Assembly: GCA_963729175.1 (NCBI GenBank)
Contig: CAVSMY010000015.1
Location: forward strand, 5,841 to 69,840
Source: an uncultured Chloroflexia bacterium
GTDB taxonomy: Bacteria > Chloroflexota > Limnocylindria > Limnocylindrales > CSP1-4
Length of the DNA stretch: 64,000 nucleotides
Direction of reading: 5' to 3'
Shown here: positions 10,851 through 36,869 of the stretch, in pieces
How the letters are laid out: each line of letters opens with the position of its first letter
Position numbering within the stretch: the first letter of the stretch is position 1
Made by a program: the position numbers and the translations under genes
Notes under the pieces: generated by a model
Told to the model about the DNA's origin: nothing
What the model saw: the letters and a program-made list of their open reading frames with translations, nothing else
Databases searched by the model: none

Positions 10851-10925
10851 GTCGGCGGTCGGGTCCCCTGGAACCCCGGCGCTCCTCGTAACGGCCCCGT
10901 ACCGAGCCGGTGATCAGATGGCGGT

Positions 10926-12394: not shown

Positions 12395-12426
12395 GATGGA
12401 CGAACCAGGGGTAGGCTTCGGCTGCC

Positions 12427-12876
12427 GTGGCCAGTCCAGCATCGATCAAGTCGCGCCTCGCCCGCTCCTTCGACCCGGCCGAGCTGCGCCGGATCAAGAA
12501 GCTCTGGATCCAGCACTCGATCGCCGAGGACCGGCGCGACATCGACGGCCTCATCGCGACGCTGTCGGTGACGTGCACGTACGAGATCGTCCCGACCGGC
12601 CAGGTCTGGCACGGCCACGACGGCGCGCGGGTGTTCTACACGGAGCTGTTCGCCGCATTCCCGGACAACGCCTTCGGGCTGACCGAGATCGTCGTCGGGC
12701 CGCAGGGGGTCTTCGAGGTCGCCACCCTGACGGGCACGAACCTCGGGCCGTGGGCCGGCGTCGCGCCATCCGGCTTACCGGTCCGGCTCGAGGTCCTCAT
12801 CCTCTTCCCATGGGACCCGGAGACGGAGCGGTTCAGCGGTGAGCGGATCTGGTTCGATCGCGGCGCGATCGCCTGA
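12427..12876 (+). CDS. SnoaL-like / NTF2-fold protein (ester-cyclase-like)
   Basis: 149 aa, GTG start. The pattern ...DIDGLIATL...Y......G....G..G...FY.ELFAAFPD... is typical of SnoaL-like polyketide-cyclase-fold proteins. Confidence 0.55.
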   Translation: MASPASIKSRLARSFDPAELRRIKKLWIQHSIAEDRRDIDGLIATLSVTCTYEIVPTGQVWHGHDGARVFYTELFAAFPDNAFGLTEIVVGPQGVFEVATLTGTNLGPWAGVAPSGLPVRLEVLILFPWDPETERFSGERIWFDRGAIA

Positions 12877-14101
12877 CGATCGCCTGCCGACGTTCGTGTC
12901 GGTCGGGACGTGGGCGTTCGCTATCGGGGTCGGGATCGTCGGCGTCCTCGTGACGGTCTTCGCCCGCCGCGGCGGCCCGACGCTCCAGGACGCGGTCTGG
13001 GCCCCCGCGACGGCGATCGCCTTCGCGACGGTCGGCGCCATCATCGTCAACCAGCGGCCCGGCAACGTGATCGGCCGGCTGTGTCTCGTGATCGGGCTCC
13101 TGCTCGGGCTCAACGTCGCTCTGACCGGGATCGCGGCCTTCGTCGACGCGCGACCGGGGCCGTTGCCGGCGCCGTTCGTCGTCTTCGCCCTCGCCTCCGG
13201 ACCGCTCCAGTGGATCGGGCTCGCGCTCATCGCCGCGCTGCTCGCCCGGTTCCCGGTCGGTCGCTTGCCGAGCCCGCCCTGGCGGGTCATCGACGCGATC
13301 GTCGGACTGTTCGCGATCGTCGTCAGCCTCACGATGTTCCTTCCCGGCGAGATATCGATCGATTGGCTCCTGCCGACCGAGAACCCGATCGGCGTCCTGC
13401 CACAGCCACCCGAAGACCTCGGCGAGGCGATCTGGGTCGTGGCCTTGATGCTCCTGTGGCCCATCGTCCTGGCATTCATCCTCGCGATCGTGGCGCTCGG
13501 GCTCCAGTACCGCAGAGCCGAGCAAGGCGGACGTGCCCAGATCCGCTGGGTCGTCGCCGCGGTCGGGCTGTTCTTCGTCGGGCTGACGTTGTCGGCCATC
13601 GGGACGCCGTTCGACGAGCTGACCTGGGCCCTCGTCCTGGTCTCGCCGGTCGCCATCCCGGTGGGCATCGGCATCGCCGTCACGCGTTACCGGCTCTACG
13701 AGATCGACCGCATCGTCAGCCGGACGATCAGCTACGCCGCCGTCACCGCGATCCTCGCCGCGACCTTCATCGGCGCCAACGTCACGCTCCAGTTCGCCCT
13801 CCGGCCGGCCCTTGGCGATGACACGATCGCCGTCGCGATGTCGACCCTCGTCGTCGCGATGCTTTTCGCCCCGGTCCGGAGTCGCGTCCAGGGAGTGGTC
13901 GACCGACGTTTCAACCGCGCCCGCATCGATGCCGAGCGTGCCGCGGCCCGGTTCGCCGACCAGCTTCGTGACGAGGTCGACCTCACGGCGCTGCGACGAG
14001 GCACGCTCGCGGCCGTGACCGGGGCGGTCGAGCCGCGCGATGCAGCCCTCTGGCTCAGGCATGCCGGGTACCCCGAGCCGTCACCGGACGCGGTCCTGTG
14101 A
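12839..14101 (+). CDS. Family-A polytopic membrane protein, paralog A1 (function unknown)
   Basis: 420 aa with multiple TM helices. Family motifs: QRPGNVIGRLCLVIG, FPVGRLPSPPWR, ENPIGV, AQIRW, VTRYRLYEIDRIVSRTISYAAVT, VDRRFNRARIDAE. Start uncertain (GTG 12839 overlaps the previous gene; alternative GTG at 12896). Confidence 0.85.
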   Translation: MSGSGSIAARSPDDRLPTFVSVGTWAFAIGVGIVGVLVTVFARRGGPTLQDAVWAPATAIAFATVGAIIVNQRPGNVIGRLCLVIGLLLGLNVALTGIAAFVDARPGPLPAPFVVFALASGPLQWIGLALIAALLARFPVGRLPSPPWRVIDAIVGLFAIVVSLTMFLPGEISIDWLLPTENPIGVLPQPPEDLGEAIWVVALMLLWPIVLAFILAIVALGLQYRRAEQGGRAQIRWVVAAVGLFFVGLTLSAIGTPFDELTWALVLVSPVAIPVGIGIAVTRYRLYEIDRIVSRTISYAAVTAILAATFIGANVTLQFALRPALGDDTIAVAMSTLVVAMLFAPVRSRVQGVVDRRFNRARIDAERAAARFADQLRDEVDLTALRRGTLAAVTGAVEPRDAALWLRHAGYPEPSPDAVL

Positions 14102-15343
14102 TGGCGTCCGCCGGCGTAGCCTCGGTCCCAGGTCGCGTGACGGTCGCCTTCGTCTGGGTCCTCGCGGCGGTCGGCGTGCTGTTCACATCGGCAGCGGGGT
14201 ATCTGTCCATCGCGGGCAGTGCTCAACCGAGCCTCAGCGACATCCTGTCGCTCCTCTCCCTCCTCGGAGCGCTCCTCGCGTTCATCCTGTCGGGCGCGAT
14301 CATCGCCTCGCGTCAACCCGGCAACATCGTCGGCTGGCTGCTCATCGTCCCGGGCCTCGCGGTGCCGCTCAGCCAGTTCGCCAGCGCCTGGCTTGCCTTG
14401 CTCGACCCACCGCCGACGAGCGCGACTCCAGCCCTCTGGCTGGCGCTCTGGTTCACCGGCTGGTCGTGGCTCCTCCTCATCTTCCCGATCTTCGATCTTC
14501 TCCTGACGTTCCCGGAGGGTCGCCTGCTGTCTCGCCGCTGGCGCAGCGCCGTCGGGCTCGAGATCGTGATGATCGTCGTGTTCATCGGGTTCGTGGCGTT
14601 TGGTCCCGACCTCGTCCTCCTAAGCCCGGACGGCACCGAGGCGATCTGGTCGATCCCTAATCCGATCGGGTTCCTCCCGGAGAACACGTTCGATGACTTC
14701 ATCGGAACGCCGTGGGCGATCGGCCTCCTGACGATGACGATCCTCAGCGTGTCCGCCTTCACCCTGCGCTTCCGACGCGGGTCGCCGGAGTTGCGCCACC
14801 AGCTGAAGTGGCCGATGCTGGCGATCGCGACCTTCGGGATCACTCTACGGCATCGCCGCCGTGGCCTCGCCCCTGAGCGACTCCGCGATCTGGAAAGTCC
14901 TGTTCGTGATCGCCGTCGCATCGATCCCGCTCTCGGTCGCGGTGGCAGTCCTGAAGTACCGCCTCTACGAGATCGACCGGATCATCAGCCGATCGGTGTC
15001 CTGGGCGATCGTCACCGCCCTCCTGGCGGGCGTGTTCGTCGCGATGGTGGTCGGCCTTCAGGCGGCGCTGGCCGGGCTGACCCAGGGTCAGACCGTGGCG
15101 GTAGCCGGTTCGACGCTCGTCGCCGCGGCGCTGTTCAACCCGGTCCGGGTCCGGGTCCAGCGGGCCGTCGACCGGAGGTTCAATCGTTCCACCTATGTCG
15201 CCGAGAAGATCGTCGGGGAATTCTCGGAGCGGATGCGCAGCGAGCTCGATCTCGAGACCCTCGGTTCCGATCTGGCGACGGCCGCGACCCGCGCGGTGGA
15301 GCCGGTGACGACGACGATCTGGCTTCGAAGATCGGCTCGATGA
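14098..15343 (+). CDS. Family-A polytopic membrane protein, paralog A2; one apparent frameshift (about 14840)
   Basis: GTGATG start overlaps the A1 stop. Motifs: SRQPGNIVGWLLIVPG, FPEGRLLSRRWR, PNPIGF, HQLKW; then in the next frame VLKYRLYEIDRIISRSVSWAIVT, AVDRRFNRSTY. Confidence 0.8.
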
Positions 15344-15495
15344 CCGGGCGCTCGCTCCGGCTGTCCCTGTCTCCCCCGCCCGGCCGGCCCTTCATGGTGT
15401 ACTAGTCCCGCTCGATGCACGACGCTCCGGACACGGACCCGGCGTCGTCTCGATGACGGATCGACAGTTCGAACACGCGTCCGCACGGCGCAGTC

Positions 15496-16257
15496 GTGAT
15501 CCGGCGCGAGGGCATCCAGCACGAGGACGGAGAGGACATGCCAGAAGCCACGGGGTCAGAGACACCTTCGGAAGGGCCGCCGGAGGAGACGAGACCGCCC
15601 CGCGACGTTGGGATCGATCCCGAGCATCGCTCGAGGTGGCGAGCGATGCTCCAGGACTCGGGCGATCGCGCGCTGGATCGTCTGTTCGGGATCGAGACCT
15701 CGGGCTGGGTCGGTCACGACCAGCTGGGATTCGACCCCGAAGATGGCACCTACTATCGGCCCTCGAATTGGATCAATCTCGTCGGCGTCTATCGGATGCT
15801 GCGGCAGATGGACATCACGTCTTCCAACGTGTTCGCGGACTTCGGCTGCGGCAAGGGTGTCGTGGTCCTGCTGGCGGGCCGCTTCCGGTTCGGGCGGGTG
15901 ATCGGCATCGATCTCTCCAAGTCGATGATCGATGTCGCCCGTCGGAACGTCGCTCGCCGCACGAAACCCGCCAAGCGGGGCCGGTATCAGCTGGTCCAGA
16001 CCGACGCCGTGGAGTACGCGATCCCCGCCGATCTCGATACCTGTTACTTCTACATGCCGTTCCCGACGCCGATCTACGAGCAGGTGATCGCCAACCTGGC
16101 GGCGTCGGCGGCTGCACATCCACGCGTCATCCGGCTGCTGTTCCTGCATCCGACGCAGCCCGATGCCGAGGTCCCGGAGCGACACGGGTTCCATGAGGTG
16201 AGCCGGATCCGGGGCCTCGTCCTCTATTCCAACGGACCCGCGAGCACGTCGTCCTGA
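15496..16257 (+). CDS. Class I SAM-dependent methyltransferase
   Basis: 253 aa. Motif I VFADFGCGKGVVVLL followed by VIGIDLS. Start uncertain (alternative ATG at about 15538). Confidence 0.7.
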   Translation: MIRREGIQHEDGEDMPEATGSETPSEGPPEETRPPRDVGIDPEHRSRWRAMLQDSGDRALDRLFGIETSGWVGHDQLGFDPEDGTYYRPSNWINLVGVYRMLRQMDITSSNVFADFGCGKGVVVLLAGRFRFGRVIGIDLSKSMIDVARRNVARRTKPAKRGRYQLVQTDAVEYAIPADLDTCYFYMPFPTPIYEQVIANLAASAAAHPRVIRLLFLHPTQPDAEVPERHGFHEVSRIRGLVLYSNGPASTSS

Positions 16258-16260
16258 GGC

Positions 16261-19149
16261 CTACCAGGTCACCAGGCGCCACTTGCCCGGCTCGAGCGCA
16301 TCCGGATCGCCGACCTCGGCGAAGATCGCGACCGCGGTCTTGAGGTGCTCGATCGCCGCCTCCTCGTCGCCGGTCGCGTGACGCAGGTCGGCGAGGCTGT
16401 TCTGGAGCGCCGCTTCCCGATGCCGGTCGCCGATCGAGCGGCACAGGGCCAGCGCTTCGTCGGTCAGGCCGATGGCCCGGGCGATCTCGCCAGCCGCGGC
16501 CAGCGAGCGGGCCAGGTTGTTCAGTGCGGCGACCTGCGCCGGTGCGTCGCCCGCTTCCGCGGCGAGCCGCAGGCTCTGACCGAGGAGGTCGCTCGCGGCC
16601 GACTGGTCGCCTCGCTCGGTCGCGAGGACGCCGGCGACGTTCGCGGCGCGGGCCACGGCATTCGGATCGCCGGACGCCTCCGCGGCGGCCAGGGCCTCCG
16701 CGGCCAGTCGGCGCGCGTCGTCGGCCCGGCCGGCCTGCTGGGCGTTGAGCCCCCGATCGGCGAGGAGGCGAGCCCGATCGGGCCCGGCGCCCTCGTGCTC
16801 GAGAGCGGCGGCGAAGTGGGCGTCCGCAGCGTCTGGGTCGCCACGGCGCTGATGGACGAGCGCGAGCCGGTGCTCGATCTCCCCGAGCCTCGCGGGGCTC
16901 GCGACCGCCGCGGCGGCCTCGAAGTGCTCGATCGCCGGGCCGTACTCTCCGGCCAGCGTCCGCAGATCGCCGAGCGCCGTGTGGATGTCCTCGACGTCGG
17001 GGTGTCCGAGCGCGAGCGCCGCCTCCAGATCGCCCTGGGCCTCGCGGTTGGCGAAGGCCGCTCGAGCCAGCTCGCCCGCCTCGACGAACGCGGCGGCGGC
17101 CTCCGCGTCACGGCCCGCCTCACGCTCGTGTCGGGCGATCCTGGCGATCCGGGCGGAGGACGGCTCGCGCACGTCCCTGGCCGTCCGTCCTCCACCAGCG
17201 CTCGATCGGAGCGCATCGGCCGCCCGTCGATGGAGCAGCCGCAACCGCGCCAGGCTCGTCGACCCGACCGCGACGTCGCGGAGCCGGGCATGGACGAAAT
17301 CGAGGTCGTCGAGACCGCCGGCCACCTCCCGGACGATGCCCCTCCCGACGAGCTCCTCGATCGCGGCGACGGTCTCGTCGTCTGAGCGGCCGCTCGTCGC
17401 CCGGACCGTCTCGGCGTCGAACGATCGTCCGAGGATCGCGCCGGCGGTCGCGACCTGCCGGGCGATCTCTGAGAGGTCCGCCAGGCGCCCGGCGAGCAGG
17501 GAGCGGATGCCCGGCGGGACCGCATCAGCCGGCAGGTCGGACGCACCGAGCTCGACGAGATACAGCGGCAGACCCTCCGCCTCGTCGACGGCGCTCTCGA
17601 GCGCGGCGCTGGTCGGCGGCGCCGTTCGGCGCCAGGCGACGGCCGCGAGCTCACGCGAGGCGACCGGGTCGAGCCGGTCGAGCCGCAGGGTCGTCGCCGA
17701 CCCGATGATCCGGGCGATGAGCGGGGCCGCCCGCTCATCGATGTCCTCTCGCCGGAATGTGATGAGGACGACGACCGGCCGACCAGAGAGCCGGCGCGAG
17801 AGGTACGCCAGGGTCTCGAGGGTCGACTCGTCGGCCCACTGGAGGTCGTCGACCCGAAGCATCCCTGGGGCCTCACCGCCGGCGAGCTCGACGAGCGCCG
17901 TCGTCACCGCCTCGAGCAGTCGATGGAGCGCGAACGGCCCGACCAGGTCCGCGGGTGCCGGCGCGTCGGCCGCGACCTCCGGGAGCAGTCGGGCGAGCTC
18001 GGTCCTGACGCCCGGCCCGAGCCGGTCGGTCCCGGCGGCGGCGATCCCGGCGCGGAGGAGCGCGACGATCGGCCCGAAGCCGATGCCGGCCTCGCCGGCG
18101 TAGGCGACCGCCTCGAGACAGGTCCCGCGCGAGTCTCGCATCTCGCGGACGACCGCGTCCGCCAGCCGCGTTTTGCCGATGCCGGCCTCGCCCTCGATCG
18201 CGATGACGATGCCATCCGCCTCGATGGCCCCGATCGCCGTCCGGAGGTGTGTCAGCTCGGTCGTCCGATCGACCAGCGGGAGCGACGACGATGCAGCGTC
18301 GGGCTCGCGGTCCTCGAGCGGCGGGCGTCCCTGGGGGGCCGACGGCGGTCCTGGCTCGACCTGGAAGGCGCCGTCCCGGATCGCTTCGTAGAGCGCGGTC
18401 GTCTCCGGCAACGGCGGCACGCCGAGCTCGCGGTCGAGCGTCCGCACGCAGTCCCGGTACTGGCGGACGGCTGCCGCCGGCTCGCCGGCCCTGGCATGCG
18501 CCTCCATGAGCAGCCGATGGGCCGGCTCGTGGAGTGGATCGAGCTCGAGCCAGCGGCGGCCGACCGTGATCGCCGCACCCGCATCCCCCGCCGAGAGCTC
18601 GAGCCTGGCGAGCCGCTCGAGCGCTCCCGCCAGCTCCCGTCGGTAGTCCTCCCGCTCGGCCAGCAGCCACTCATCGAACGGCTCGCTGTCACGGAGGGCG
18701 AAGCCGTCCATGAACGTCCCGCGATCGAGCACGGCGGCGGCCCGGAGCGCCGCGCGGCAGCGGCGGCACGACTCGCCCGAGTCATGGCGATGGGCGCGCG
18801 CCCGGGCGAGTGCCGCGCGGAAGGCGCCGAGATCGGAGGCGACGACGCCCGGATCGATCGCGACCGCCGATCGGTCGATCGTCAGCCGACCCGGGCCGAG
18901 GGCGGCATTGAGGACCGACAGGGTGCGCCGGAGGGCGCCGCGCGCGGAGGTCTCATCGGCCTCCGGCCAGAGAAGGGCGGCGAGGACATCCCGGCTCGCC
19001 GGGCGACCCGACGCCACCAGGTACGCGAGGAGGGCGACGGCCTTGCGGGTGTCGACATCGAGCGGCGCGCCCTCGACCCGGACCGAGACCGGGCCGAGAA
19101 GCTGGACATCGACCGGTGGCGGCGGCACGAGCGCAACGGTACACGCCAC
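16261..19149 (-). CDS. SARP/AfsR-type regulator: OmpR-like wHTH + BTAD + AAA/NB-ARC ATPase + TPR
   Basis: 962 aa. VQLLGPVSVRVEG...RKAVALLAYL (wHTH); FDEWLLAEREDYRREL...HEPAHRLLMEAHARAGEPAAAVRQYRDC (BTAD); Walker A IEGEAGIGKTRL; C-terminal TPR-like repeats. Confidence 0.85.
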   Translation of the reverse strand: MACTVALVPPPPVDVQLLGPVSVRVEGAPLDVDTRKAVALLAYLVASGRPASRDVLAALLWPEADETSARGALRRTLSVLNAALGPGRLTIDRSAVAIDPGVVASDLGAFRAALARARAHRHDSGESCRRCRAALRAAAVLDRGTFMDGFALRDSEPFDEWLLAEREDYRRELAGALERLARLELSAGDAGAAITVGRRWLELDPLHEPAHRLLMEAHARAGEPAAAVRQYRDCVRTLDRELGVPPLPETTALYEAIRDGAFQVEPGPPSAPQGRPPLEDREPDAASSSLPLVDRTTELTHLRTAIGAIEADGIVIAIEGEAGIGKTRLADAVVREMRDSRGTCLEAVAYAGEAGIGFGPIVALLRAGIAAAGTDRLGPGVRTELARLLPEVAADAPAPADLVGPFALHRLLEAVTTALVELAGGEAPGMLRVDDLQWADESTLETLAYLSRRLSGRPVVVLITFRREDIDERAAPLIARIIGSATTLRLDRLDPVASRELAAVAWRRTAPPTSAALESAVDEAEGLPLYLVELGASDLPADAVPPGIRSLLAGRLADLSEIARQVATAGAILGRSFDAETVRATSGRSDDETVAAIEELVGRGIVREVAGGLDDLDFVHARLRDVAVGSTSLARLRLLHRRAADALRSSAGGGRTARDVREPSSARIARIARHEREAGRDAEAAAAFVEAGELARAAFANREAQGDLEAALALGHPDVEDIHTALGDLRTLAGEYGPAIEHFEAAAAVASPARLGEIEHRLALVHQRRGDPDAADAHFAAALEHEGAGPDRARLLADRGLNAQQAGRADDARRLAAEALAAAEASGDPNAVARAANVAGVLATERGDQSAASDLLGQSLRLAAEAGDAPAQVAALNNLARSLAAAGEIARAIGLTDEALALCRSIGDRHREAALQNSLADLRHATGDEEAAIEHLKTAVAIFAEVGDPDALEPGKWRLVTW

Positions 19150-19199
19150 GCGGTTCGTCCCGTAACGTTGTCGAGACGAGCGACCTCGACGATGGCGCC

Positions 19200-20429
19200 A
19201 TGATCGGAGGTTGTGTGACGACCGACGCCCGGACCGACCGAGCGACCGATCCGGTCGAGCGCGCCGGACGACTGATGCGGATCGCCATCGTGGTCCTGTT
19301 CCTTGCCGGCTTGGCCGTCTGCCTCTGGGCCGTCGAGCCGGTGGGGGTCGTCATGTACCTCGCCTACGCCGGCGTCGGCGGCCTCGTCGCCTATCGACGG
19401 CCGTCCCATCCGGTCGGCTGGTTGCTCATCCTGGCCGGCTGGGGCGCCACCGGGATCTCGCGGGTCGACCTCCCGGTGGACGCCTTGGTGGCCGGCGGAC
19501 TGACGCCGCAGCAGGAGCTCGCGGCGTGGCTGAACGGGAACGCCTGGACGCTCGTCATCGGCGCCCTGTTCGGGGTGACGCTCGTGTTCCCGTCCGGGAC
19601 GCTGCCGGGTGGTCGGGCCAGGACCCTCGCCCTGCTCGCATCGGCGGCGATGGTCCTGGCGGGCGTCCTCGTCACGATCGCCCCGACGATCAACGTCACG
19701 TCGATGTCCGGCCAGCCGGTGGACATCCCCAACCCGGTGGCCGTGGCTCCGGAAGCGGCGATCTGGGGGGTGCTGACGCCGACCACGGTGCTGTACCCAG
19801 CGATGTTCATGCTCCTCGCTGCCGGGATCGTGTCGCTGCTCCTGCGAGCCCGACGCTCGACGGGCCTCGAACGGCTCCAATACACCTGGCTCCTGGCAGC
19901 GATCTGCCTCGTCGTCATCGGATCGGCGGTCTGGGTGATCCTCACGTTCTTCGTCGCCCGCTACGAGCTCGTCTGGATCCCCGTCCTGCTCACCTACCCC
20001 ACCGTCCCGATCGCCATCGCCGTCGCGGTCCTCCGGTATCGCCTGTTCGAGATCGATCGGATCATCAGCCGGACGATCGGCTGGGCCATCGTGACCCTTG
20101 GCCTCGCTACTGTCTTCGTCGCTGTGGTCGTCGGACTGCAGACCGTCCTGACGCCCTGGACGTCGGGCGACACATTGGCCGTCGCTGCGTCGACGCTCCT
20201 CGTCTTCGGCCTTTTCCAGCCGCTCCGACGACGGGTCCAGAGAGCCGTCGACCGCCGCTTCGACCGAGCCCGAGTCGATGCCGAGGCGACGGTCGAGGCG
20301 CTCGCGGCGCGGCTGCGCGAGGACGTGGCCCTCGATGCCGTCCGCCGGGAGGTCCTGCTCGCGACCGACCAGGCGCTCCGGCCGACGGCCACGGGGATGT
20401 GGCTCCGCGGTAGCGGTGGGTCGACATGA
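19200..20429 (+). CDS. Family-A polytopic membrane protein, paralog A3
   Basis: Motifs: YRRPSHPVGWLLILAG, FPSGTLPGGRAR, PNPVAV, RLQYTW, VLRYRLFEIDRIISRTIGWAIVT, AVDRRFDRARVDAE. Start uncertain (ATG at 19200 or 19275; the ORF opens at 19116). Divergent from the SARP gene. Confidence 0.85.
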   Translation: MIGGCVTTDARTDRATDPVERAGRLMRIAIVVLFLAGLAVCLWAVEPVGVVMYLAYAGVGGLVAYRRPSHPVGWLLILAGWGATGISRVDLPVDALVAGGLTPQQELAAWLNGNAWTLVIGALFGVTLVFPSGTLPGGRARTLALLASAAMVLAGVLVTIAPTINVTSMSGQPVDIPNPVAVAPEAAIWGVLTPTTVLYPAMFMLLAAGIVSLLLRARRSTGLERLQYTWLLAAICLVVIGSAVWVILTFFVARYELVWIPVLLTYPTVPIAIAVAVLRYRLFEIDRIISRTIGWAIVTLGLATVFVAVVVGLQTVLTPWTSGDTLAVAASTLLVFGLFQPLRRRVQRAVDRRFDRARVDAEATVEALAARLREDVALDAVRREVLLATDQALRPTATGMWLRGSGGST

Positions 20430-22829: not shown

Positions 22830-22866
22830 CGTCCTGGTGGATGTGCGACGGCGTATCTTCCGTCCG

Positions 22867-24530: not shown

Positions 24531-24564
24531 CGGTTCCCGGACGGAGGGTCGCGAGACTGCTGCC

Positions 24565-27754: not shown

Positions 27755-28992
27755 CCGAGCGAGATCTCCGGACGACGGGACCCGGCGAGCGCGTCGCTGC
27801 CGCGCTGCTCTGGATCCTCGCGGCGGTGGCAAGCTCGGCCCTCGTCGGGGCGGTCCTCATCGGCGGTGCCGAGCAGTTCGGTCCGCCCGACGATCCGGCC
27901 ACGATCGCCTTCGTCCTCTTTCTCGCCCTTGCGTCGATGGCTTTCGCGACCGCCGGGATCCTCGTGGTCGTCCGTCGACCCGGGAACATCATCGGCTGGC
28001 TCATGCTCGCGATCGGCCCCTTGATCTCGGGAGCGTTCACCGGCTTCGCGCTCGGAGCCCTCTCCACCGCCGCCCTCGGTCCCGACGATCTGCGTGCCGG
28101 CTTCCTCAGCATGCTCGGCGTGACGACGCTCCTGCCGGCGCTCGCCCTCGTCGGGATCCTCACCCTCGTCTATCCGACGGGACACTTCCTGTCGCGACGG
28201 TGGGCCTGGCTGACGGCGATCGTCGCCGCGCCGATCGTGCTGGATGAGCTCCTCATCGTCATCCGGCCGGGCCAGCTCGACCCCACGCTGGCCCGCAACC
28301 CGCTCGGATTCGGGACATTCCTGCCGATGGAGCAGGCCGTCATCTTCGATGGGATCGCGTATCCGGCGACGTTCCTCCTCGTGCTCCTCGGGTTCCTGTC
28401 GATGCTGGTGCGACTGCGTGGGGCCGACGCGGTCACCCGGCAGCAGCTGAAGTGGTTCCTTGCCGCGGTCGCGGTGATCTTCGTCACGGGTGTCGCGAGC
28501 AGCCTCGGCGAGTCGAACAGCAACGACGTCATCGATCTGCTGGCGGTCGCCAGCTATGCCCTGCTGCCGACTGCGGTCTGCATCGCGATCCTGCGCTATC
28601 GGCTGTATGAGATCGACCGACTGGTCAGTCGGACCGTCAGCTGGGCGATCGTGACGGCCGTCCTGGTGGCGACGTTCGCGGCCGGCCTGCTGGCCCTCCA
28701 GACGATCCTTGCCGACGTCACCCAGGGCGACACGATCGCCGTGGCGGCCTCGACGCTCATCGCCCTGGCCGTCTTCCAGCCCGTCCGCCGGCGGGTCCAG
28801 CGGGCGGTCGACCGCCGGTTCGACCGGAGCCGCTACGACGCGGAGCGGGTGATCGATGACTTCGGCACGCGCCTGCGTGACCAGCTCGACCTGTCGCTTC
28901 TCAGGAGCGAGGTCGGGCGGGTCGCGACCGAGACCGTCCGTCCGACGCGGGCGAGCGTCTGGATCCGGCCGATCCGGCCGGGCGGCCGATGA
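27751..28992 (+). CDS. Family-A polytopic membrane protein, paralog A8
   Basis: ATGA overlap with A7. Motifs: VRRPGNIIGWLMLAIG, YPTGHFLSRRWA, RNPLGF, QQLKW, ILRYRLYEIDRLVSRTVSWAIVT, AVDRRFDRSRYDAE. Confidence 0.9.
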   Translation: MTERDLRTTGPGERVAAALLWILAAVASSALVGAVLIGGAEQFGPPDDPATIAFVLFLALASMAFATAGILVVVRRPGNIIGWLMLAIGPLISGAFTGFALGALSTAALGPDDLRAGFLSMLGVTTLLPALALVGILTLVYPTGHFLSRRWAWLTAIVAAPIVLDELLIVIRPGQLDPTLARNPLGFGTFLPMEQAVIFDGIAYPATFLLVLLGFLSMLVRLRGADAVTRQQLKWFLAAVAVIFVTGVASSLGESNSNDVIDLLAVASYALLPTAVCIAILRYRLYEIDRLVSRTVSWAIVTAVLVATFAAGLLALQTILADVTQGDTIAVAASTLIALAVFQPVRRRVQRAVDRRFDRSRYDAERVIDDFGTRLRDQLDLSLLRSEVGRVATETVRPTRASVWIRPIRPGGR

Positions 28993-29095
28993 GCGGTCCG
29001 GGCGCGCGGCGGGCGCACCGTCGTAACGATGACCGGACACCCGCGCGGTACACCATGCGCACACTGACGAGCAAGCGACGGATCGGAGGGGCGAG

Positions 29096-29440
29096 ATGAC
29101 AGCGACGACGGTCGAAGTGGAGCCGATCGACGGGACGGCGATCCTGCACATCCGCGGCGAGGTGACCGCGGCGTCCGAGGGGGCACTGATGGACGCCTAC
29201 GGCGCCGCGACCGCGGCTGGCGCGACGACGATCGTCCTCGACTTCAGCAACCTCGAGTACATGAACAGCGGTGGCATCGGGCTGATGGTCACGCTCCTCA
29301 TCCGGGTCCAGCGAGCGGGCCAGAAGCTCATGGCCGCGGGGCTGTCGGACCACTACCGCCAGATCATGTCGCTGACCCGCCTCGACGAGGCGATCGCGAT
29401 CCACGACACACCCGCCTCGGCGCTGGCCGCGACGGTCTGA
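29096..29440 (+). CDS. STAS-domain anti-sigma-factor antagonist, second copy
   Basis: 114 aa, GGAGGGG SD. IVLDFSNLEYMNSGGIGLMV and LSDHYRQIMSLTRL parallel the first STAS protein. Confidence 0.8.
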   Translation: MTATTVEVEPIDGTAILHIRGEVTAASEGALMDAYGAATAAGATTIVLDFSNLEYMNSGGIGLMVTLLIRVQRAGQKLMAAGLSDHYRQIMSLTRLDEAIAIHDTPASALAATV

Positions 29441-29450
29441 GGACACGACG

Positions 29451-30236
29451 ATGGCCACTTCCCCGACCCCACCGATCGACACGACGCCGTCGACAGACGC
29501 TTCGCCTGCGAAGCCGGTCGATGCCGCTCCCGCCGCGGCCAAGGGCTCCGGCTGGGCCTCTCCGGTCGACCGCCTGACGGTCACGACCGCTCCGAAGGGG
29601 GCGATGCCGGTGACCGTCCAGGGCCGGCGGCTGGCGGGTCCCCTTCAGGGCTTCGGGCAGCTGTGGCAGAAGACGTTCCGCATCCGCCTCGACGGCCAGG
29701 CCGACCCGGCCGCGGTCGTCGCCCACTGGAAGGCCCACTTCCCGGAGTTCTGGCCGAAGGGCAACACGTTCTACGCTCCGCTCGAGGGCATCAAGCCCGG
29801 CGAGGTCGCTCTCCTGAAGGTCACCGCCGCCGGCCCGGTGAAGCTCAACAGCGGCGTCATGGTCATCTACGCCGACGACACGTCGTTCTCGCTCATGACC
29901 CCGGAGGGCCACACGTTGGCGGCCTGGATCACCTTCAGCGCCGAGCGCGATGCCGCGACCGGCGACGTGGTGGCCCAGACGCAGGCGCTGGAGCGGCCGT
30001 CCGATCCGTTCTACGAGATGGCGTACCTGCTCGGTGCGAACGAGAAGAACAGCCGGTTCTGGGAGGCCACGCTCGAGAACCTCGCCCGATCCCTCGGGGT
30101 CGAGGGCCGCTGCGAGCGCACGATCGTCCGGGTCGATCCGAAGCGCCAGTGGCGCCACGCCGGGAACGTGGTCCACAACGCGAACATCCGTGGCACCTTC
30201 TGGACGATCACCCACCCGCGGTCCTGGCGGCGCTGA
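29451..30236 (+). CDS. Conserved-looking hypothetical protein, no domain recognised
   Basis: 261-aa ORF 10 nt after the STAS gene. Non-repetitive, balanced composition (e.g. GFGQLWQKTFRIRL, HWKAHFPEFWPKGNTFYAPLEGIKPGEV). Low-complexity Pro/Thr/Ala N-terminus. Confidence 0.6.
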   Translation: MATSPTPPIDTTPSTDASPAKPVDAAPAAAKGSGWASPVDRLTVTTAPKGAMPVTVQGRRLAGPLQGFGQLWQKTFRIRLDGQADPAAVVAHWKAHFPEFWPKGNTFYAPLEGIKPGEVALLKVTAAGPVKLNSGVMVIYADDTSFSLMTPEGHTLAAWITFSAERDAATGDVVAQTQALERPSDPFYEMAYLLGANEKNSRFWEATLENLARSLGVEGRCERTIVRVDPKRQWRHAGNVVHNANIRGTFWTITHPRSWRR

Positions 30237-30278
30237 CCCGCGCCACCCGACCGATCACCTGCTGACACCGACACACGC

Positions 30279-31716
30279 GTGACCGACCGGCTCGACGCCG
30301 TCGTCGTCGGCGCCGGGCCGAACGGGCTGGCGGCGGCGATCACCCTTGCCCAGGCGGGCTGGTCGGTCCGCGTCGTCGAGGCGTCCGACACGCCCGGAGG
30401 CGGCAGCCGCTCGGCCGAGCTGACGCTGCCCGGATACATCCACGATGTCTGCGCGACCGTCATGGGCACGCACCTCGCCTCGCCGTTCTTTCGCGACGTT
30501 GTGGACCTCAGTCGTCACGGTCTGGAGTTCGCGACCCCGGACGCGCCGCTCGGCCACGCGCTCGACGATGGCCGAGCGGTCATGCTGGAGCGGTCCGTCG
30601 ACGCGACCGCGGCGGGCCTCGGACGGGACGGGACCGCCTACCGACGACTCGTCGGGCCGCTCGTCGCGGACGCCGACCGGCTGCTGCCCTGGCTCCTCGG
30701 CCCGGTGGCCCGGCCGACCCGTCACCCGATCGCCCAGGCCCGGTTCGGCATCCCGGGTATCGCCTCGGCGACGGTTCTCGCGCGGACGGTGTTCCGCGAG
30801 GAACCGGGCCGGGCGCTGCTCGCCGGGCTCGCCGGTCACTCGATGCTGCCGCTCCGCGAGCCGGGTACCGCCGGCTTCGCCCTCGTCCTCGCGCTGATGG
30901 CCCACGTCACCGGCTGGCCGGTGGTCCGTGGCGGAGCAGGCAGACTGGCCGAGGCGATGACAGCCGAGCTCCTGTCGCTCGGCGGCGAGATCGAGACGGG
31001 CCGTCGGGTCGAGAGCCTCGAGGAGCTCCCGACGGCGCGGGCGACGCTGCTCGACCTGTCGCCTCGCCAGGTCGTGGCGATCGCCGGCGGACGGCTCCCG
31101 GACCGCTACCGCCGTCGCCTGGCCGGGTTCCGCTACGGGCCGGGCGTCTGCAAGGTCGACTGGGCCCTCTCCGGACCGATCCCCTGGCAGGCCCCCGAGC
31201 TGGCCCGCGCCGGGACGGTCCATGTCGGTGGATCCGCTGGCCGAGATCGCAGCGGCCGAGCGCGAGCCGCATCGCGGTCGGGACGCCGCTCGACCGTATC
31301 TGCTGCTCGTCCAGGCCACCCGGTTCGACCCGACGCGGGCGCCCGACGGCGGCCAGACGGCCTGGGCGTACTGCCACGTGCCCCACGGCTCGGCCGTCGA
31401 CGTGAGCTCGGCGATGGAGGCCCAGATCGAGCGCTTCGCACCGGGGTTCCGCGACACGATCATCGGTCGTTCGGTGAAGACCGCGGCGGCGATGGAGGCC
31501 TACGACGCGAACTACGTCGGCGGCGACATCAACGGCGGCGTCCAGGACCTGCGGCAGCTGTTCGGTCGACCGATCCTGACCCGCGACCCGTACGCGACCC
31601 CCGTCCGGGGCCTGTACATCTGCTCGTCGTCGACGCCGCCGGGCGGCGGCGTCCACGGCATGTCGGGCTACCTCGCCGCACGATCGGCGCTTCGACGCAC
31701 AGGCCGCGACCGCTGA
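30279..31716 (+). CDS. FAD/NAD(P)-dependent oxidoreductase of the phytoene-desaturase (CrtI-like) family; one apparent frameshift (about 31233)
   Basis: Dinucleotide fold VVVGAGPNGLAAAITLAQAGWSVRVVEASDTPGGG. After the shift: LAEIAAAEREPHRGR...YLLLVQATRFDPTRAP...YICSSSTPPGGGVHGMSG, a typical C-terminus. Confidence 0.75.
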
Positions 31717-31732
31717 ACCCAGGGACGAGCGA

Positions 31733-33082
31733 CTAGCGCACGGAGACGGATCCCACCCCACCCCGGAGGTCGAACTCGACGCGGTGTCGGGCGGTCGCCC
31801 AGTCGGGCGAGATCCAGCCACCGGAGGGATCGCGCGGGAACCGCGCCATGTCGACATCGGTCGAGCCGAGCCCCATCTTCGAGGAGATCCGGGCCGCGAC
31901 GCCGGGCGGGACGATGAACCGGAGCGAGGCGACGCCGGCCTCGGCATCGACGCGGGTGTAGTCGGTCGTGGCCGGGACGGTGATCGTCGTGTCCGAGGCG
32001 CCGGACTTGACGCGCAGGTCGGTGACCCGGAGCGCTGACAGATCGGCCACGGTCTTCGAGGCGCCGCCCTCGAGCGCGAGACGGAGCGGGACCGCGTCCG
32101 TCAGCCCGATCCGCCATTCGAACGGCGCGCGGTCCCACGGCGCGCTCCACATCCGATCCGCCGGCGTCGCCAGCCGGATCCGACCGGGGCCGCGGCCCTC
32201 GAGCCGGGCGCCGCCCCGGAACGTGCCGTCGACGAGGTGGCCGGGCCCGGCCGGCCCGGTGATCGTCAGGACCCCGGCGCCGAACGAGATCGTGACGTCG
32301 GCCATCGTGGCGTCGCCCAGATCGATCGATCGATCCTCGTCGTCCCCCGACAGCGTCGAGGCCTGGGCGGCCTGGGTGGCCGGTCCGCCAGCGGCCTCGG
32401 CGGCCGCGCCGGTCGCCCTGGCGGCGGCTCCCTCGGCGGCCTCGCCAGCCGCCGCCGCGGCGGCGGCTGCCCCGGGCACCGGGCCGCGCGCCGGGCCCGC
32501 CGGTGTCCAGCCGGCGCCTCCGCTCGCCTCCCAGCTATCGGCCCGCCAGAACCGCGGCGCGACGAACGCCCCGACGAGCAGCAGCAGTCCGAGGATGACG
32601 ATCAGCGCCGGGACCACGACCGAGACGACCTGCTGATCGGCGTTGCCGAGGCCGAGGAAGCCCTCGAAGAACACGAACCCGACGAGGAAGAGAGCGATGC
32701 CGGCCGTCAGTGCGCCGAGGCCCGACCGGATGAACCGGCCCTGGCCGGTCAGGAGCCCGTAGAGGGACATCCCGAGGCCCACGCCGCCTGGCGCGACGAG
32801 GGCCCAGGCGTAGGCCCAGCTCCCGGAGGAGTCCGTAGCCTGCTGGACGCCGAGGACGACCCCGACCGTCGTGACGATCCCGCCGGCGATCGCGAATCCG
32901 ACGCCGCCTTCGTGGCCGACGAGCAGGCCGGCGACGAAGAGGCCGATGCCGACCGCGATCGGCCAGACGGGCCAGTCGATGTGGAACGTCAGCTGCTGCC
33001 CGGCGAAGAGCAGCAGACCGATGACGATCAGGACGATCCCGATGCCGGCGCCCCGGCGGGTGTCCGACTGCATGGCCTGCAT
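31733..33082 (-). CDS. Membrane protein with N-terminal multi-TM region, Ala-rich linker and C-terminal toast-rack (LiaF/DUF2154-like) beta domain
   Basis: Start taken at MQAMQSD (33082); the ORF opens at 33202. There are 5-6 TM helices. The C-terminus has repeated strand pairs (DVTISFGAGVLTITG, LRLALEGGASKTVADL, DLRVKSGASDTTITVP, VEFDLRGGVGSVSVR). Confidence 0.55.
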   Translation of the reverse strand: MQAMQSDTRRGAGIGIVLIVIGLLLFAGQQLTFHIDWPVWPIAVGIGLFVAGLLVGHEGGVGFAIAGGIVTTVGVVLGVQQATDSSGSWAYAWALVAPGGVGLGMSLYGLLTGQGRFIRSGLGALTAGIALFLVGFVFFEGFLGLGNADQQVVSVVVPALIVILGLLLLVGAFVAPRFWRADSWEASGGAGWTPAGPARGPVPGAAAAAAAAGEAAEGAAARATGAAAEAAGGPATQAAQASTLSGDDEDRSIDLGDATMADVTISFGAGVLTITGPAGPGHLVDGTFRGGARLEGRGPGRIRLATPADRMWSAPWDRAPFEWRIGLTDAVPLRLALEGGASKTVADLSALRVTDLRVKSGASDTTITVPATTDYTRVDAEAGVASLRFIVPPGVAARISSKMGLGSTDVDMARFPRDPSGGWISPDWATARHRVEFDLRGGVGSVSVR

Positions 33083-33235
33083 GATGCGCCTCCGGATCGT
33101 GGCGAGAGCACGGAGCGAGGCGAGCCGAGGGACAGACCTCGCCACGTTCGATCGTCGTCCGGGAGGGCACCGCCCGGGATGTGCCACCCGGCCCGCGATC
33201 ACGGGTCGCGCGTCACCATCGCGCCGGGGAGCCGA

Positions 33236-33638: not shown

Positions 33639-33687
33639 ACGGCTCCGACCCCTGCCACGTTCGACCGTAACGCTCCCGAGACGGCAG

Positions 33688-34948
33688 ATGTCGACGATGT
33701 CGCGCATGACGATGAGCGGCCGATCGCTGGATCGCGCACTGATCTGGCTCGGCGTCGCCCTGTGTAGCGCTTCGTTCGCGGTGATCGCCCTCGCCGTGTG
33801 GCTGCGGGTCACGTCGAGCGCGCCACCATTGGAGAACCGGTTCGGGATCAGCGATGCATCGCTTGTCGGCCCGATCGTCCTCGTCGTGGCGTGCGCCGCG
33901 GTCGCCCTCGTCATCCTCGTGCGTCGACCACGGACCGTCGTCGCCTGGCTGCTGTCCGGGATCGGCCTGTCCTACGGCGTAACGGTCCTGTGTATCGCGG
34001 CCGTCTTCGACGCCGCCGTCCATCCCGGGCCGGTCGGGCTCGCCGAGGTGGGCTGGCTCGCACAGGTCGGGGCCCAGGTCGCTGGCGTCCTGACATTCGT
34101 CTTCATCTTCGCCTTCCCGGATCCCGCGAGGATCCCGCGAGGCGGCCTCCTGCTCGTCGCGGCAGCCGTCGTGGCCGGGGTGAACAGCGCCTGGATCAGC
34201 CTCCACCCGGGGCCGTTGTTCCTGTGGCCGACCATCGTCAACCCCATCGGCGTCGCTCCCGTGCTCCTCGGCGGCGGAAGTGCCGACGTCGTCGTCGTTC
34301 CCGCTCCTGGTCGGCTCGGGCTGGCTCCTGACGATCCCGTGGCTCGCATGGCGCTACCGCTGGAGCGACCCGGTCGAGCGGCTCCAGCTCAAGTGGTTCG
34401 CGTCCGCCGGTATCGTCTCGGTGGTCGCGTTGATCATCCTGCTGGCCGTCGGCCTGAGCGGGTGGAACGATCCTGGCCTGTGGTGGCCGATCGCGCTGTA
34501 CGCCCTGGCGATGACGCTCGTGCCGGTCGCCGTAGGGGTCGCGATCCTGCGATACGACCTGTACGCCATCGACCGGATCATCAATCGGGCGATCGTCTAC
34601 TCGGCGCTGACCGCCCTCCTGGCGGTCGCATTCGCGGTGACGATCACCGCCCTCGGAACGATCGCCAGGATCACCCTCATCGGGAGTGGTGAGGGCGATG
34701 CCGTCATCGTGGCGCTCTCGACTCTGACCATCGCGGCGCTCTTCAACCCCCTCCGCAGGCTGATCCAGACGGCCGTCGACCGGCGGTTCGACCGGGCGCG
34801 CTACGACACGACCCGGACCATCGACGCGTTCGCCGAGCGGCTTCGCGGCACCCTCGACCTGGAACAGCTCGAGACCGAGATGCTCGAGGTCGTCCGGGGT
34901 GCCCTCCGACCATCGATCGCGGGCGTCTGGCTCGGGAGAGGCCGGTGA
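33688..34948 (+). CDS. Family-A polytopic membrane protein, paralog A9 (RYDLYAIDR subtype); one apparent frameshift (about 34300)
   Basis: Motifs: VRRPRTVVAWLLSGIG, VNPIGV; after the shift WRYRWSDPVERLQLKW, ILRYDLYAIDRIINRAIVYSALT, AVDRRFDRARYDTT. Several in-frame ATGs at 33688-33712. Confidence 0.8.
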
Positions 34949-36210
34949 CCGGGCGAGGGCCGACCGACCGGGCGCTCAGATGGCTCGGCGTCCTGGTCTG
35001 GGTGGGGACGGTGGCCCTGACGGTCGTCGCATTCGGCCTTCGGCTGATGTCACACGCTCCCCCCTATGAGAACCGCTTCGGGATGACGGATGCGTCGCTG
35101 GGCGGCTTCGGGATCCTCGAGGTCACCTGCGTGAGCGTGGCTCTCGTCATCATCAGTCGGTTGCCGCGCAACCTCGTGGCCTGGTTGCTGTTCGGCATCG
35201 GCTTGTCGTATGCCATCTCGATCGTCTGCGCCGCGATCGTCTTCGACGCCGCGGCTGACGGGACGCTGGCGGATCGCGCGATCGTCGCCTGGCTGGCTCA
35301 GGCGGGCGCCCAGGTGGCGGGCGTCCTGACATTCGTCTTCATCTTCGTCTATCCGGAGATCCACCTCGACGAACGGAAGCGGCTGACGGTCGGGGTCGTC
35401 GTCTTCGGCGGCACGGTGATCGGGGTCGGGTCGATCGCCCTCCACCCGGGTTCGCTGTTCTTCTGGCCATCGATCCCGAATCCGTTCGGCATCGGCCCGC
35501 GGTTCCTGCTCGGTCCCGACGAAAGCCTGGTCGCCGTGCCGGTGATCCTGCTGGCCTTCGGACTGGCTGCCGTGGCCTGGATCGGCTGGCGCTATCGCCG
35601 GAGCCAGGGGGTCGAGCGTCTGCAGCTCAAGTGGTTCGTCTCGGCCGCGGTCGTGTCGCTGGCGGCGCTGGTCGTCCTGATCACCCTCGGCGGTGCCGGG
35701 CGCGGCACGGGGACGGAGTGGTGGCCACTCCTCGTCTACGCCCTCTCGGTGACGCTCGTCCCGATCGCGGTCGGCGTCGCGATCCTTCGCTACGACCTCT
35801 ACGCGATCGACCGGATCATCAACCGGGCCATCGTCTACGCCGCCGTCACGGCATTGCTCGCCCTCGTCTTCGCCGCGATCGTGGTCGTCGTCGGGGCTGC
35901 GCTCGCGGGGGTCACGAACGAATACGAGACGGTCGCCGTCGCGATCTCGACGCTCGCCGTCGCGGCGCTCTTCAGCCCCATCCGCGGCCGCATCCAGCGG
36001 GCAGTCGATCGGCGGTTCTACCGAGCCAAGTACGACTCGACCCGGACGGTCGACGCGTTCGGCGAGCGGCTCCGCCGGACCCTCGACCTCGAAGAGCTCG
36101 AAGGCGAGATGCTCGATGTCGTCGAGCGGGCGCTACGACCCCGGGCTGCCGGCGTCTGGCTCGCCGGCGCGGAGCCGGCCGAAGGTCAGCGCCAGGCCGT
36201 CCGGGCCTGA
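34945..36210 (+). CDS. Family-A polytopic membrane protein, paralog A10 (RYDLYAIDR subtype)
   Basis: 421 aa, GTGA overlap with A9. Motifs: SRLPRNLVAWLLFGIG, PNPFGI, ERLQLKW, ILRYDLYAIDRIINRAIVYAAVT, AVDRRFYRAKYDST. Confidence 0.9.
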   Translation: MTGRGPTDRALRWLGVLVWVGTVALTVVAFGLRLMSHAPPYENRFGMTDASLGGFGILEVTCVSVALVIISRLPRNLVAWLLFGIGLSYAISIVCAAIVFDAAADGTLADRAIVAWLAQAGAQVAGVLTFVFIFVYPEIHLDERKRLTVGVVVFGGTVIGVGSIALHPGSLFFWPSIPNPFGIGPRFLLGPDESLVAVPVILLAFGLAAVAWIGWRYRRSQGVERLQLKWFVSAAVVSLAALVVLITLGGAGRGTGTEWWPLLVYALSVTLVPIAVGVAILRYDLYAIDRIINRAIVYAAVTALLALVFAAIVVVVGAALAGVTNEYETVAVAISTLAVAALFSPIRGRIQRAVDRRFYRAKYDSTRTVDAFGERLRRTLDLEELEGEMLDVVERALRPRAAGVWLAGAEPAEGQRQAVRA

Positions 36211-36860: not shown

Positions 36861-36869
36861 TCGCGCATG

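Follow-up and report, generated by a model that had tools for sequence, protein, structure and literature searches.

The 64,000-nucleotide (nt) stretch of contig CAVSMY010000015.1 analyzed here (the window), from an uncultured Chloroflexia bacterium, carries ten genes (A1 to A10) for membrane proteins that a preliminary description had taken for possible kinase-less sensors. Profile comparisons support this idea: the ten proteins are stand-alone copies, devoid of the kinase domains, of the 10-transmembrane-helix (10-TM) module found N-terminally in NarL-type GAF histidine kinases (HKs). Their arrays belong to a conserved cassette with an AfsR-like SARP gene, a PP2C-RsbW/STAS partner-switching module and a shared promoter element, a context that the preliminary description did not see. 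The HK-class sensor module, the Rv1364c-like switch and the AfsR-like regulator are each of an already known kind; what seems to be new is that such a sensor module has been detached, multiplied and genomically linked to a serine phosphatase/kinase/STAS partner switch. The conserved cassette points to an undescribed multi-sensor signaling system.

A sensor module detached from histidine kinases

A tblastn search against plasmids matched a Streptomyces protein annotated as 'GAF domain-containing sensor histidine kinase' (WP_138957284.1, plasmid pSSP121038 of Streptomyces sp. YIM 121038), in which the Pfam order is membrane region, GAF, HisKA_3 and HATPase_c. Columns 55-411 of the 434-column family profile align with residues 63-412 of this kinase (hhalign probability 99.9%, E 5.8e-32). 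The link to actinobacterial HKs, which had been suggested for an N-terminal module, therefore extends over essentially the whole family length, tail included. An exhaustive search of representatives brought up a second kinase, P0411, at 406 bits, which carries two family modules ahead of its GAF, HisKA_3 and HATPase_c domains; the family aligns with its residues 393-789 (hhalign probability 100%, E 2.4e-44). What is shared with NarL-type (HisKA_3) GAF HKs of Actinomycetota and Chloroflexota comprises all 10 TM helices, the RRPxN, FPDG, NPxG, QLKW and RYRLY(D/E)IDR motifs and the linker helix, and in the HK the homologous region begins at TM2 and ends with the first GAF helix and strand.

As the last residues of the family (AVRPxxAxVWLR) align with the first GAF strand in both kinases (ALRLPYVAIEL and ALKLPYAAIEL), the family corresponds to the HK sensor module, the linker helix and the first GAF helix and strand, and to nothing more. 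Pfam GAF matches in both kinases begin after the point where the family ends (HK residue 412, P0411 residue 789). In contrast to these kinases, the family lacks the rest of GAF, the HisKA_3 dimerization/phosphoacceptor domain and HATPase_c, and it is not a histidine kinase. Neither HisKA_3 nor HATPase_c gave a Pfam match in seven window proteins or in 105 family members. The earlier view that the proteins contain no output domain also holds for cyclase and helix-turn-helix (HTH) domains, for which there was likewise no Pfam match. A further difference lies in the neighborhood, as no response regulator follows the family genes and their arrays adjoin the PP2C-RsbW/STAS module instead.

When 1.3 Mb of family loci were searched by hidden Markov model (HMM), no HK fusion came up, and all matches restricted to the N-terminal half were frameshift fragments. 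With the N-terminal half of A7 alone as query, only short fragments were matched; two of them had been named NarL-family sensor kinase by the Joint Genome Institute (JGI), and both are cut before any kinase domain. Among longer family matches (577-884 amino acids, aa), most consist of modules fused in tandem, with no other Pfam domain. One locus on pSSP121038 (L078, 949476-954303) encodes a tandem pair of HisKA_3 histidine kinases with one NarL-type response regulator after them, and the second kinase carries a family-like membrane module. Together with the two modules in the single polypeptide of P0411, these tandem kinases indicate that tandem duplication of the module also occurs in kinase-fused form.

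HK sensor modules usually dimerize, and the membrane module of the family is identical in kind to that of HKs. The ten proteins could thus be decoys that form heteromers with full-length GAF-HisKA_3 kinases encoded elsewhere and modulate two-component signaling, their linkage to the cassette being only regulatory. This is very unlikely, as neither the window nor the 1.3 Mb of family loci yielded such an HK, and both the linkage and the shared promoter element point to the phosphatase of the cassette (PP2C-W, below), not to a two-component pair.

Ten paralogs in the window

With A6 as query, tblastn against the window returns exactly ten copies, all on the + strand, and these coincide with the ten co-directional paralogs located in the preliminary description:

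A1, 12839-14101, + strand: intact; start at 12839 or at GTG 12896
A2, 14098-15343, + strand: 1-nt deletion near 14846; full-length once corrected
A3, 19200-20429, + strand: intact
A4, 20426-21619, + strand: intact; about 155 nt at the 3' end identical to A5
A5, 21616-22829, + strand: 1-nt insertions near 22477 and 22526; full-length once corrected
A6, 22867-24075, + strand: intact; member used for the structure model
A7, 26531-27754, + strand: intact; translationally coupled to the STAS gene V1
A8, 27751-28992, + strand: intact
A9, 33688-34948, + strand: 1-nt deletion near 34303; full-length once corrected; likely start ATG 33706
A10, 34945-36210, + strand: intact

Seven of the ten genes have intact open reading frames (ORFs), and single-base indels affect A2, A5 and A9. 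After single-base correction these three are full-length, contain all motifs and end in ...W(L/I)R like the others; the true end of A2 is 15343, not 15405. Because the SnoaL gene upstream stops at 12876, A1 may start at GTG 12896 and not at 12839. The proteins are about 400 aa long, and the ten genes together occupy about 12.4 kb or 19% of the window, close to the fifth estimated before. Overlaps of 4 nt (ATGA or GTGA) were found at five junctions (A1/A2, A3/A4, A4/A5, A7/A8 and A9/A10), which fits the mostly overlapping arrangement described earlier, and the motifs listed at that time are present in alignments of 7 and of 105 family sequences.

Topology and conservation of the membrane protein

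The polytopic architecture is confirmed by an AlphaFold2 (AF2) model of A6 with 10 TM helices (mean pLDDT 85.6). The last TM helix runs on as a long cytoplasmic helix (residues 314-363) and is followed by a second helix (367-382). The helical tail measures about 65 aa; its C-terminal end is of low confidence or disordered yet bears the invariant residues P384 and W390. Loops with the RRPxN, FPDGRLPSxRWR, RxQLKW and RYRLYEIDR motifs contain on average 2.0-5.0 Lys+Arg, as opposed to 0.1-0.5 in the alternate loops. By the positive-inside rule, this enrichment places the motif loops in the cytoplasm and gives an N-in/C-in topology. Conservation is highest (0.60-0.80) in the cytoplasmic motif loops, TM10 and the tail helix, and low (0.10-0.39) in TM1-7 and most outer loops; the NPxG motif, located in an outer loop, is conserved in the 105-sequence alignment.

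No Pfam or NCBIfam domain reaches its cutoff in the family proteins of the window. The best Pfam score is that of A3 to PF16927 HisKA_7TM (26.2 bits, below the gathering threshold of 28.6), and only 4 of the 105 members match this model at E<0.01. A weak local similarity over TM6-TM8 is shared with PF16927, to which the related Streptomyces HK is also a weak match; the family differs in having 10 TM helices rather than 7 and a conserved tail, and the threshold set by Pfam excludes it from PF16927.

A Foldseek search of the PDB with the A6 model returned only generic 7TM bundles (best E 0.03, TM-score at most 0.35), and a sequence profile search of the PDB with the family gave nothing below E 0.7. 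An assignment to a transporter or enzyme class, which would have contradicted the preliminary description, was rejected on these grounds.

A conserved SARP/PP2C-W/STAS cassette

Gene neighborhoods were compared by tblastn in 77 loci from species-representative genomes, 52 of which are at least 15 kb long. As the loci derive from the 80 best matches to A6 and include many related metagenome-assembled genomes (MAGs), the counts given below do not represent independent events. The conserved order is SnoaL (+ strand), SARP (- strand), a varying number of family genes (+ strand), PP2C-W, two STAS genes, DUF1990 and an FAD-dependent oxidoreductase-like gene. In the window, these genes and one additional small gene are as follows:

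SnoaL-like protein, 12415-12876, + strand: Pfam SnoaL 2.2e-11; conserved flank of the cassette in 14 loci
AfsR-like large SARP (winged HTH/BTAD-AAA_16-TPR), 16261-19149, - strand: Pfam BTAD 2.9e-23, AAA_16 and TPR_12; NCBIfam AfsR 4e-20
DUF2269 small membrane protein, 24072-24530, + strand: between A6 and PP2C-W, GTGA overlap with A6
PP2C-W, 24565-26178, + strand: fusion of a half-GAF, a PP2C/SpoIIE phosphatase and an RsbW-like HATPase_c_2 kinase (Pfam, AF2 model)
STAS protein V1, 26178-26531, + strand: serine in YINSTG; TGATG overlaps with PP2C-W upstream and with A7 downstream
STAS protein V2, anti-sigma-factor antagonist, 29096-29440, + strand: serine in YMNSGG; Pfam STAS 1e-14
DUF1990 protein, 29451-30236, + strand: conserved cassette member
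FAD/amine-oxidase-like oxidoreductase, 30279-31736, + strand: conserved cassette member; frame change near 31250

An ortholog of PP2C-W was found in 44 of the 52 long loci, which come from both Chloroflexota and Actinomycetota, and the orthologs, present in 53 loci overall, are 51-75% identical. The nearest family gene lies at a median distance of 199 nt from PP2C-W. Co-occurrence with PP2C and STAS genes had been put forward earlier as a check on the family, and the arrays indeed turn out to be embedded in this cassette. The SARP gene is divergent from A3-A6, and in about 50 loci an ortholog (41-51% identical) is likewise encoded upstream, on the opposite strand. Independent gene calls and Pfam marks in loci L080 and L081 agree with the cassette. 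These two loci have an identical PP2C-W protein and cassette and share a wider synteny with the window (PdxS/PdxT and a SpoIIIAA-like gene); in both, antisense ORFs were called across a family gene.

The usual place of the arrays is between SARP and PP2C-W, with alternatives after the FAD gene or among the STAS and DUF1990 genes. All of these arrangements are combined in the window, where A1-A2 follow SnoaL, A3-A6 take the canonical position, A7-A8 lie between the STAS genes and A9-A10 are located downstream. None of the 77 related loci contains the DUF2269 gene, and it does not belong to the conserved cassette; in four other loci, an unrelated small membrane protein (131-153 aa) is encoded with the same promoter element ahead of it.

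PP2C-W combines a phosphatase with a kinase domain (Pfam SpoIIE 1.7e-49, HATPase_c_2 1.1e-19), and its AF2 model has its best PDB match in 3KE6, the RsbU-RsbW part of Rv1364c (Foldseek E 4e-20). The N-terminal GAF is partial and consists of two short helices, a hairpin and a long exit helix in the model. It is preceded by 33 disordered residues that start with a conserved MTFIxSLRR, and the protein has no TM segment. The partial GAF aligns with the GAF segment of kinases directly after the A-like module (E 5e-5 and 2.5e-4). Since a comparison of the PP2C-W profile with the family profile (hhalign) detected no similarity, PP2C-W contains no copy of the family tail of its own. V2 scores 59 bits against TIGR00377, above the cutoff of 53.45, and both V1 and V2 match MlaB weakly. 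PDB sequence searches with the DUF1990 and FAD proteins returned nothing.

The cassette thus encodes a PP2C/SpoIIE phosphatase, a HATPase_c_2 domain and STAS proteins with a phosphorylatable serine, the phosphatase, kinase and antagonist parts of an RsbU/RsbW/RsbV-type partner switch. The closest known counterpart is Rv1364c of Mycobacterium tuberculosis (3KE6; PAS-RsbU-RsbW-RsbV). Both share the fused phosphatase-kinase unit, and STAS partners with a phosphorylatable serine are kept in the cassette. They differ in the input domain, which is a partial GAF and not PAS, in the presence of two separate STAS proteins and in the genomic attachment of membrane-module arrays. Rv1364c is linked to SigF, a link without counterpart in the cassette.

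The position of A7-A8 between both STAS genes and the translational coupling of A7 to V1, together with arrays adjoining STAS or DUF1990 genes in three other loci (L025, L031 and L071), would also be compatible with an opposite direction of signaling, in which the family proteins are membrane effectors (channels, transporters or envelope enzymes) regulated as outputs by unphosphorylated STAS proteins that bind their conserved cytoplasmic face, as the STAS protein MlaB regulates MlaFE. The weak MlaB matches of V1 and V2 and the lack of a sigma factor in the cassette fit such a role. We nevertheless consider it unlikely, as the protein is homologous over its entire length to a sensor module known only from positions upstream of kinase domains, no fold of a transporter or enzyme was matched, and conservation falls on the cytoplasmic loops instead of a TM pore or an outer active site. 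Arrays of diversified paralogs also suit a diversity of inputs better than a single effector activity.

A shared SARP-box-like promoter element

The heptamer CGTAACG occurs seven times in the window against 2.3 expected, a number reached in none of 100 shuffles, and five of these sites lie upstream of gene starts:

SARP-box-like element, 10887-10925, + strand: CGTAACG-N4-CGTACCG, 9 nt, TCAGAT; ATG of ORF 10926 (nucleoside hydrolase) at +39
SARP-box-like element, 19161-19193, + strand: CGTAACG-N4-CGAGACG, 9 nt, GACGAT; ATG of A3 at +39
SARP-box-like element, 24526-24558, + strand: perfect CGTAACG-GTTC-CCGGACG, 9 nt, GAGACT; ATG of PP2C-W at +39
SARP-box-like element, 29022-29054, + strand: CGTAACG-ATGA-CCGGACA, 9 nt, TACACC; upstream of V2
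SARP-box-like element, 33666-33698, + strand: CGTAACG-CTCC-CGAGACG, 9 nt, GACGAT; ATG 33706 (A9) at +40

The first of these may mark the start of an operon that continues through SnoaL to A1-A2. Across the loci, the + strand has 203 occurrences of CGTAACG and the - strand 35, and in 49 of 53 loci the heptamer is found at most 150 nt upstream of the start of the PP2C-W ortholog. The consensus, CGTAACG-nTnn-CCGGACG, consists of two heptamers in an 11-nt phase and is followed by 9 nt and a -10-like nAnnaT at +27 to +32; the first ATG after the element is most often at +39. The strict form of the element was found ahead of 49 family genes and 47 PP2C-W genes, and the core heptamer also stands upstream of unlinked single-copy family genes. 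Leaderless transcripts are predicted if the ATG at +39 is where transcription starts.

In known SARP targets, the repeats are 11 bp apart and about 8 bp separate the 3' repeat from the -10 element; the afs box of AfsR spans -40 to -19 (PMC10936776). The geometry of the element, as judged from position frequencies across the loci and from the window sites, agrees with this rule: two direct repeats in an 11-bp phase stand about 8-9 bp upstream of the -10-like sequence and would cover -40 to -19 with a transcription start at the ATG. As in AfsR/SARP-dependent systems, the gene beside the arrays specifies a large SARP with NOD/AAA and TPR domains; the repeat sequence (CGTAACG/CCGGACG), the target genes and the hosts, which include Chloroflexota, differ. 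The divergent AfsR-like SARP is the obvious candidate activator, and its binding to the element is predicted on the basis of this geometry. A scan for consensus sigma-70 promoters found none, and terminator-like matches were at chance level.

The predicted SARP-type promoter would extend AfsR-like regulation beyond antibiotic clusters and beyond Actinomycetota, and CGTAACG-N4-CCGGACG offers a simple sequence handle for finding the regulon.

Modular evolution of the paralogs

Adjacent genes had been described as each other's closest relatives. At the protein level this holds for A3-A6 (A3/A4 50%, A4/A5 56% and A5/A6 54% identity), A7/A8 (59%) and A9/A10 (60%), but not for A1/A2, which are only 38% identical and both have their nearest relatives in other genomes. 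Similarity among the window paralogs is also unevenly distributed, the 3' ends being far more alike than the 5' parts. In a comparison of 242 family sequences by protein part, the nearest relative was found in the same locus for only 28 of 222 N-terminal sensor halves (residues 40-240; 13%), whereas this proportion rose to 37% for TM8-10 and to 42% (93 of 222) for the tail. This difference between sensor half and tail indicates that part of the similarity between neighbors is due to homogenization of the C-terminal region. The repeated local duplication proposed earlier is only partly borne out: the duplications are old (identities of at most 60%), and the resemblance of neighboring tails that had been taken as its sign in part reflects such homogenization.

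The sensor halves are accordingly old, independently evolving paralogs. The transmitter halves of one genome, in turn, stay similar through gene conversion, a common partner, or both. An example is seen in A4 (about 21445-21600) and A5 (about 22655-22810), which share about 155 nt at 100% identity; this stretch encodes the cytoplasmic tail, and DNA identity outside of it is 40-60%. It represents either a recent gene-conversion tract or an artefact of consensus polishing.

Homogenized C-terminal halves within genomes and a conserved cytoplasmic face and tail would also be expected of passive membrane anchors or scaffolds that localize PP2C-W and the STAS proteins and do no sensing, comparable to the 10-TM region of SpoIIE. 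PP2C-W itself, which lacks a TM segment and whose N-terminus (MTFIxSLRR) is conserved though disordered, would fit as a client of such anchors. For this purpose, however, one anchor would suffice, yet 2-10 paralogs are retained that diverged long ago and have orthologs across genomes, and conservation of NPxG in an outer loop is likewise not accounted for. We regard a purely passive role as rather improbable.

Frameshifts and copy number

Frame breaks in the window are not restricted to the family. The conserved FAD-oxidoreductase gene changes frame once (near 31250), and a gene for a SpoIIIAA/PTPase/R3H protein (36186-38229, - strand) has three breaks, which divide it among four frame pieces; in the relative L081, both genes are intact. 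The sibling assemblies L080 and L081 differ from each other in their frame breaks, that is, in which family and FAD genes are split, and even the highly conserved phosphatase gene is broken in several long-read MAG loci. As conserved genes outside of the family are broken in the same way, in the window as well as in long-read MAGs, and as L080 and L081 differ likewise, the indels in A2, A5 and A9 are probably sequence or assembly errors and do not mark pseudogenes. PdxT of the window was matched over only 142 of 237 residues; together with the broken FAD and SpoIIIAA-like genes, this partial match suggests that the window assembly is prone to indel errors. At the 5' side of the arrays, the nucleoside hydrolase ORF 10926-11813 (IU_nuc_hydro) covers only the first 164 of 297 profile positions and is overlapped in another frame by ORF 11321-12394, which is probably a further frameshift.

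The number of ten copies, in turn, is not an assembly artefact, since the paralogs are at most 60% identical and multi-copy arrays occur in 60 of the 77 loci, including that of an isolate, Nocardioides sp. GXQ0305. This answers an objection already anticipated in the preliminary description. Three frameshifted copies out of ten and the identical tract of A4 and A5 could otherwise be taken as signs that the family consists of decaying remnants of truncated histidine kinases, or of assembly artefacts. This explanation is already largely refuted and hardly credible: between 10,472 and 36,140 clusters (50% identity) have a conserved length and end point, invariant residues continue into the last 15 aa, every motif is kept in the corrected copies, and the indels also hit conserved genes of the window that do not belong to the family. 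The isolate genome, moreover, has eight apparently intact copies, each forming one tblastn segment over most of the query.

A possible multi-sensor input to a partner switch

Based on homology, conservation and gene context, we consider the chances slightly better than even that the family represents a diversified set of membrane sensors, or sensor-anchors, all feeding a single PP2C-RsbW/STAS switch, with the whole set forming a SARP regulon. The variable half of each paralog, made up of the outer loops and TM1-7, would perceive a different membrane or extracytoplasmic cue. The arginine-rich cytoplasmic face, TM8-10 and the helical tail (P..W.R) would then pass the signal on to PP2C-W or to a STAS protein, shifting the balance of phosphatase and kinase and thereby the phosphorylation state of the STAS proteins. 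The divergent AfsR-like SARP may drive both the family arrays and the phosphatase operon from the shared CGTAACG-N4-CCGGACG promoters, in which case the whole set would form one regulon, possibly with feedback.

Several observations weigh against this proposal. No cognate sigma factor or other defined target of the switch is encoded in the cassette in the window, L080 or L081. A mirror-tree test of the tail against the N-terminal domain of PP2C-W gave no specific co-variation when phylogeny was controlled for (partial r -0.14). The position of the arrays in the cassette varies, which is compatible with a looser coupling, and the locus sample is biased towards the A6 subfamily and related MAGs. 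Gene order alone, finally, does not distinguish input from output.

The contact between membrane protein and switch could perhaps take a more specific form. In the kinases, one chain holds the membrane module, the signaling helix, the first GAF helix and strand, and the rest of GAF in this order. In the cassette, the membrane protein ends with the first GAF helix and strand, and PP2C-W starts with the remaining partial GAF. The family and PP2C-W might thus be the two halves of a sensor that related kinases hold in a single chain, with up to ten membrane sensors docking their invariant P..W.R tail into the partial GAF of PP2C-W, or onto the STAS sheet, by helix or strand complementation. Such docking is attractive but unsupported given the mirror-tree result, and we hold a sensor split in this way to be possible, though doubtful. 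If true, it would amount to a combinatorial, membrane-bound, stressosome-like input array under feedback by an AfsR-type SARP, widespread in soil Chloroflexota and Actinomycetota.

For diversified sensors that converge on one switch, a comparable logic may be seen in the Bacillus stressosome (compare PMC11821858), where RsbR paralogs with variable N-terminal sensors and a conserved C-terminal part act upstream of RsbT and RsbU on one PP2C switch. The likeness would be one of organization, as there is no homology: RsbR proteins are soluble and composed of globin-like and STAS domains, whereas the family is polytopic and without a STAS domain, and neither RsbS nor RsbT is present. Detached sensor arrays of this kind touch on the question of how membrane signals enter partner-switching systems.

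Size and distribution of the family

At E<=1e-3, the family profile hits 36,140 representatives of 50%-identity clusters, and at E<=1e-30 the number is 10,472; nearly all of the top matches are stand-alone proteins about 400 aa long. Two or more copies are present in 60 of the 77 loci and four or more in 36, with a maximum of nine; all 275 copies lie on the strand of the copy that defines their own locus. Multi-member expansion is hence the normal habit of the family and not a peculiarity of this genome. The loci mostly come from Limnocylindria-type Chloroflexota, and others from Nocardioides, Cellulomonas, Solirubrobacterales, Rubrobacteraceae, Thermoleophilia and one Gemmatimonadota.

Literature searches turned up nothing that describes the family, its cassette or the promoter element. 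The preliminary description had known of no CHARACTERISED member, in line with which neither a paper nor a Pfam or NCBIfam model was found for the family; it is thus a family without Pfam model, solved structure or characterized member. The family is very large and dominates a conserved regulatory cassette of abundant, poorly studied soil lineages, namely Limnocylindria-type Chloroflexota, Nocardioides, Solirubrobacterales and Rubrobacteraceae.

Neighboring genes in the window

PADLOC gave no defence-system match in the window, except for a generic TPR match of the SARP, and Rfam and tRNA scans found nothing. The stretch after A2 (15344-16260) contains a single ORF (15453-16196), arginine-rich and without homologs, which probably does not represent a gene. 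A 489-aa ORF (31733-33202, - strand), located between the FAD gene and A9, has no Pfam domain and a relative only in L013. The only sigma factor of the window is an extracytoplasmic function (ECF) sigma factor (2219-2860, - strand), encoded with an RskA-type anti-sigma factor (1314-2381, - strand). A GAF-GGDEF diguanylate cyclase (224-1273, + strand) adjoins this pair, and the three genes, which precede the first family gene by about 10 kb, lie outside of the conserved cassette.

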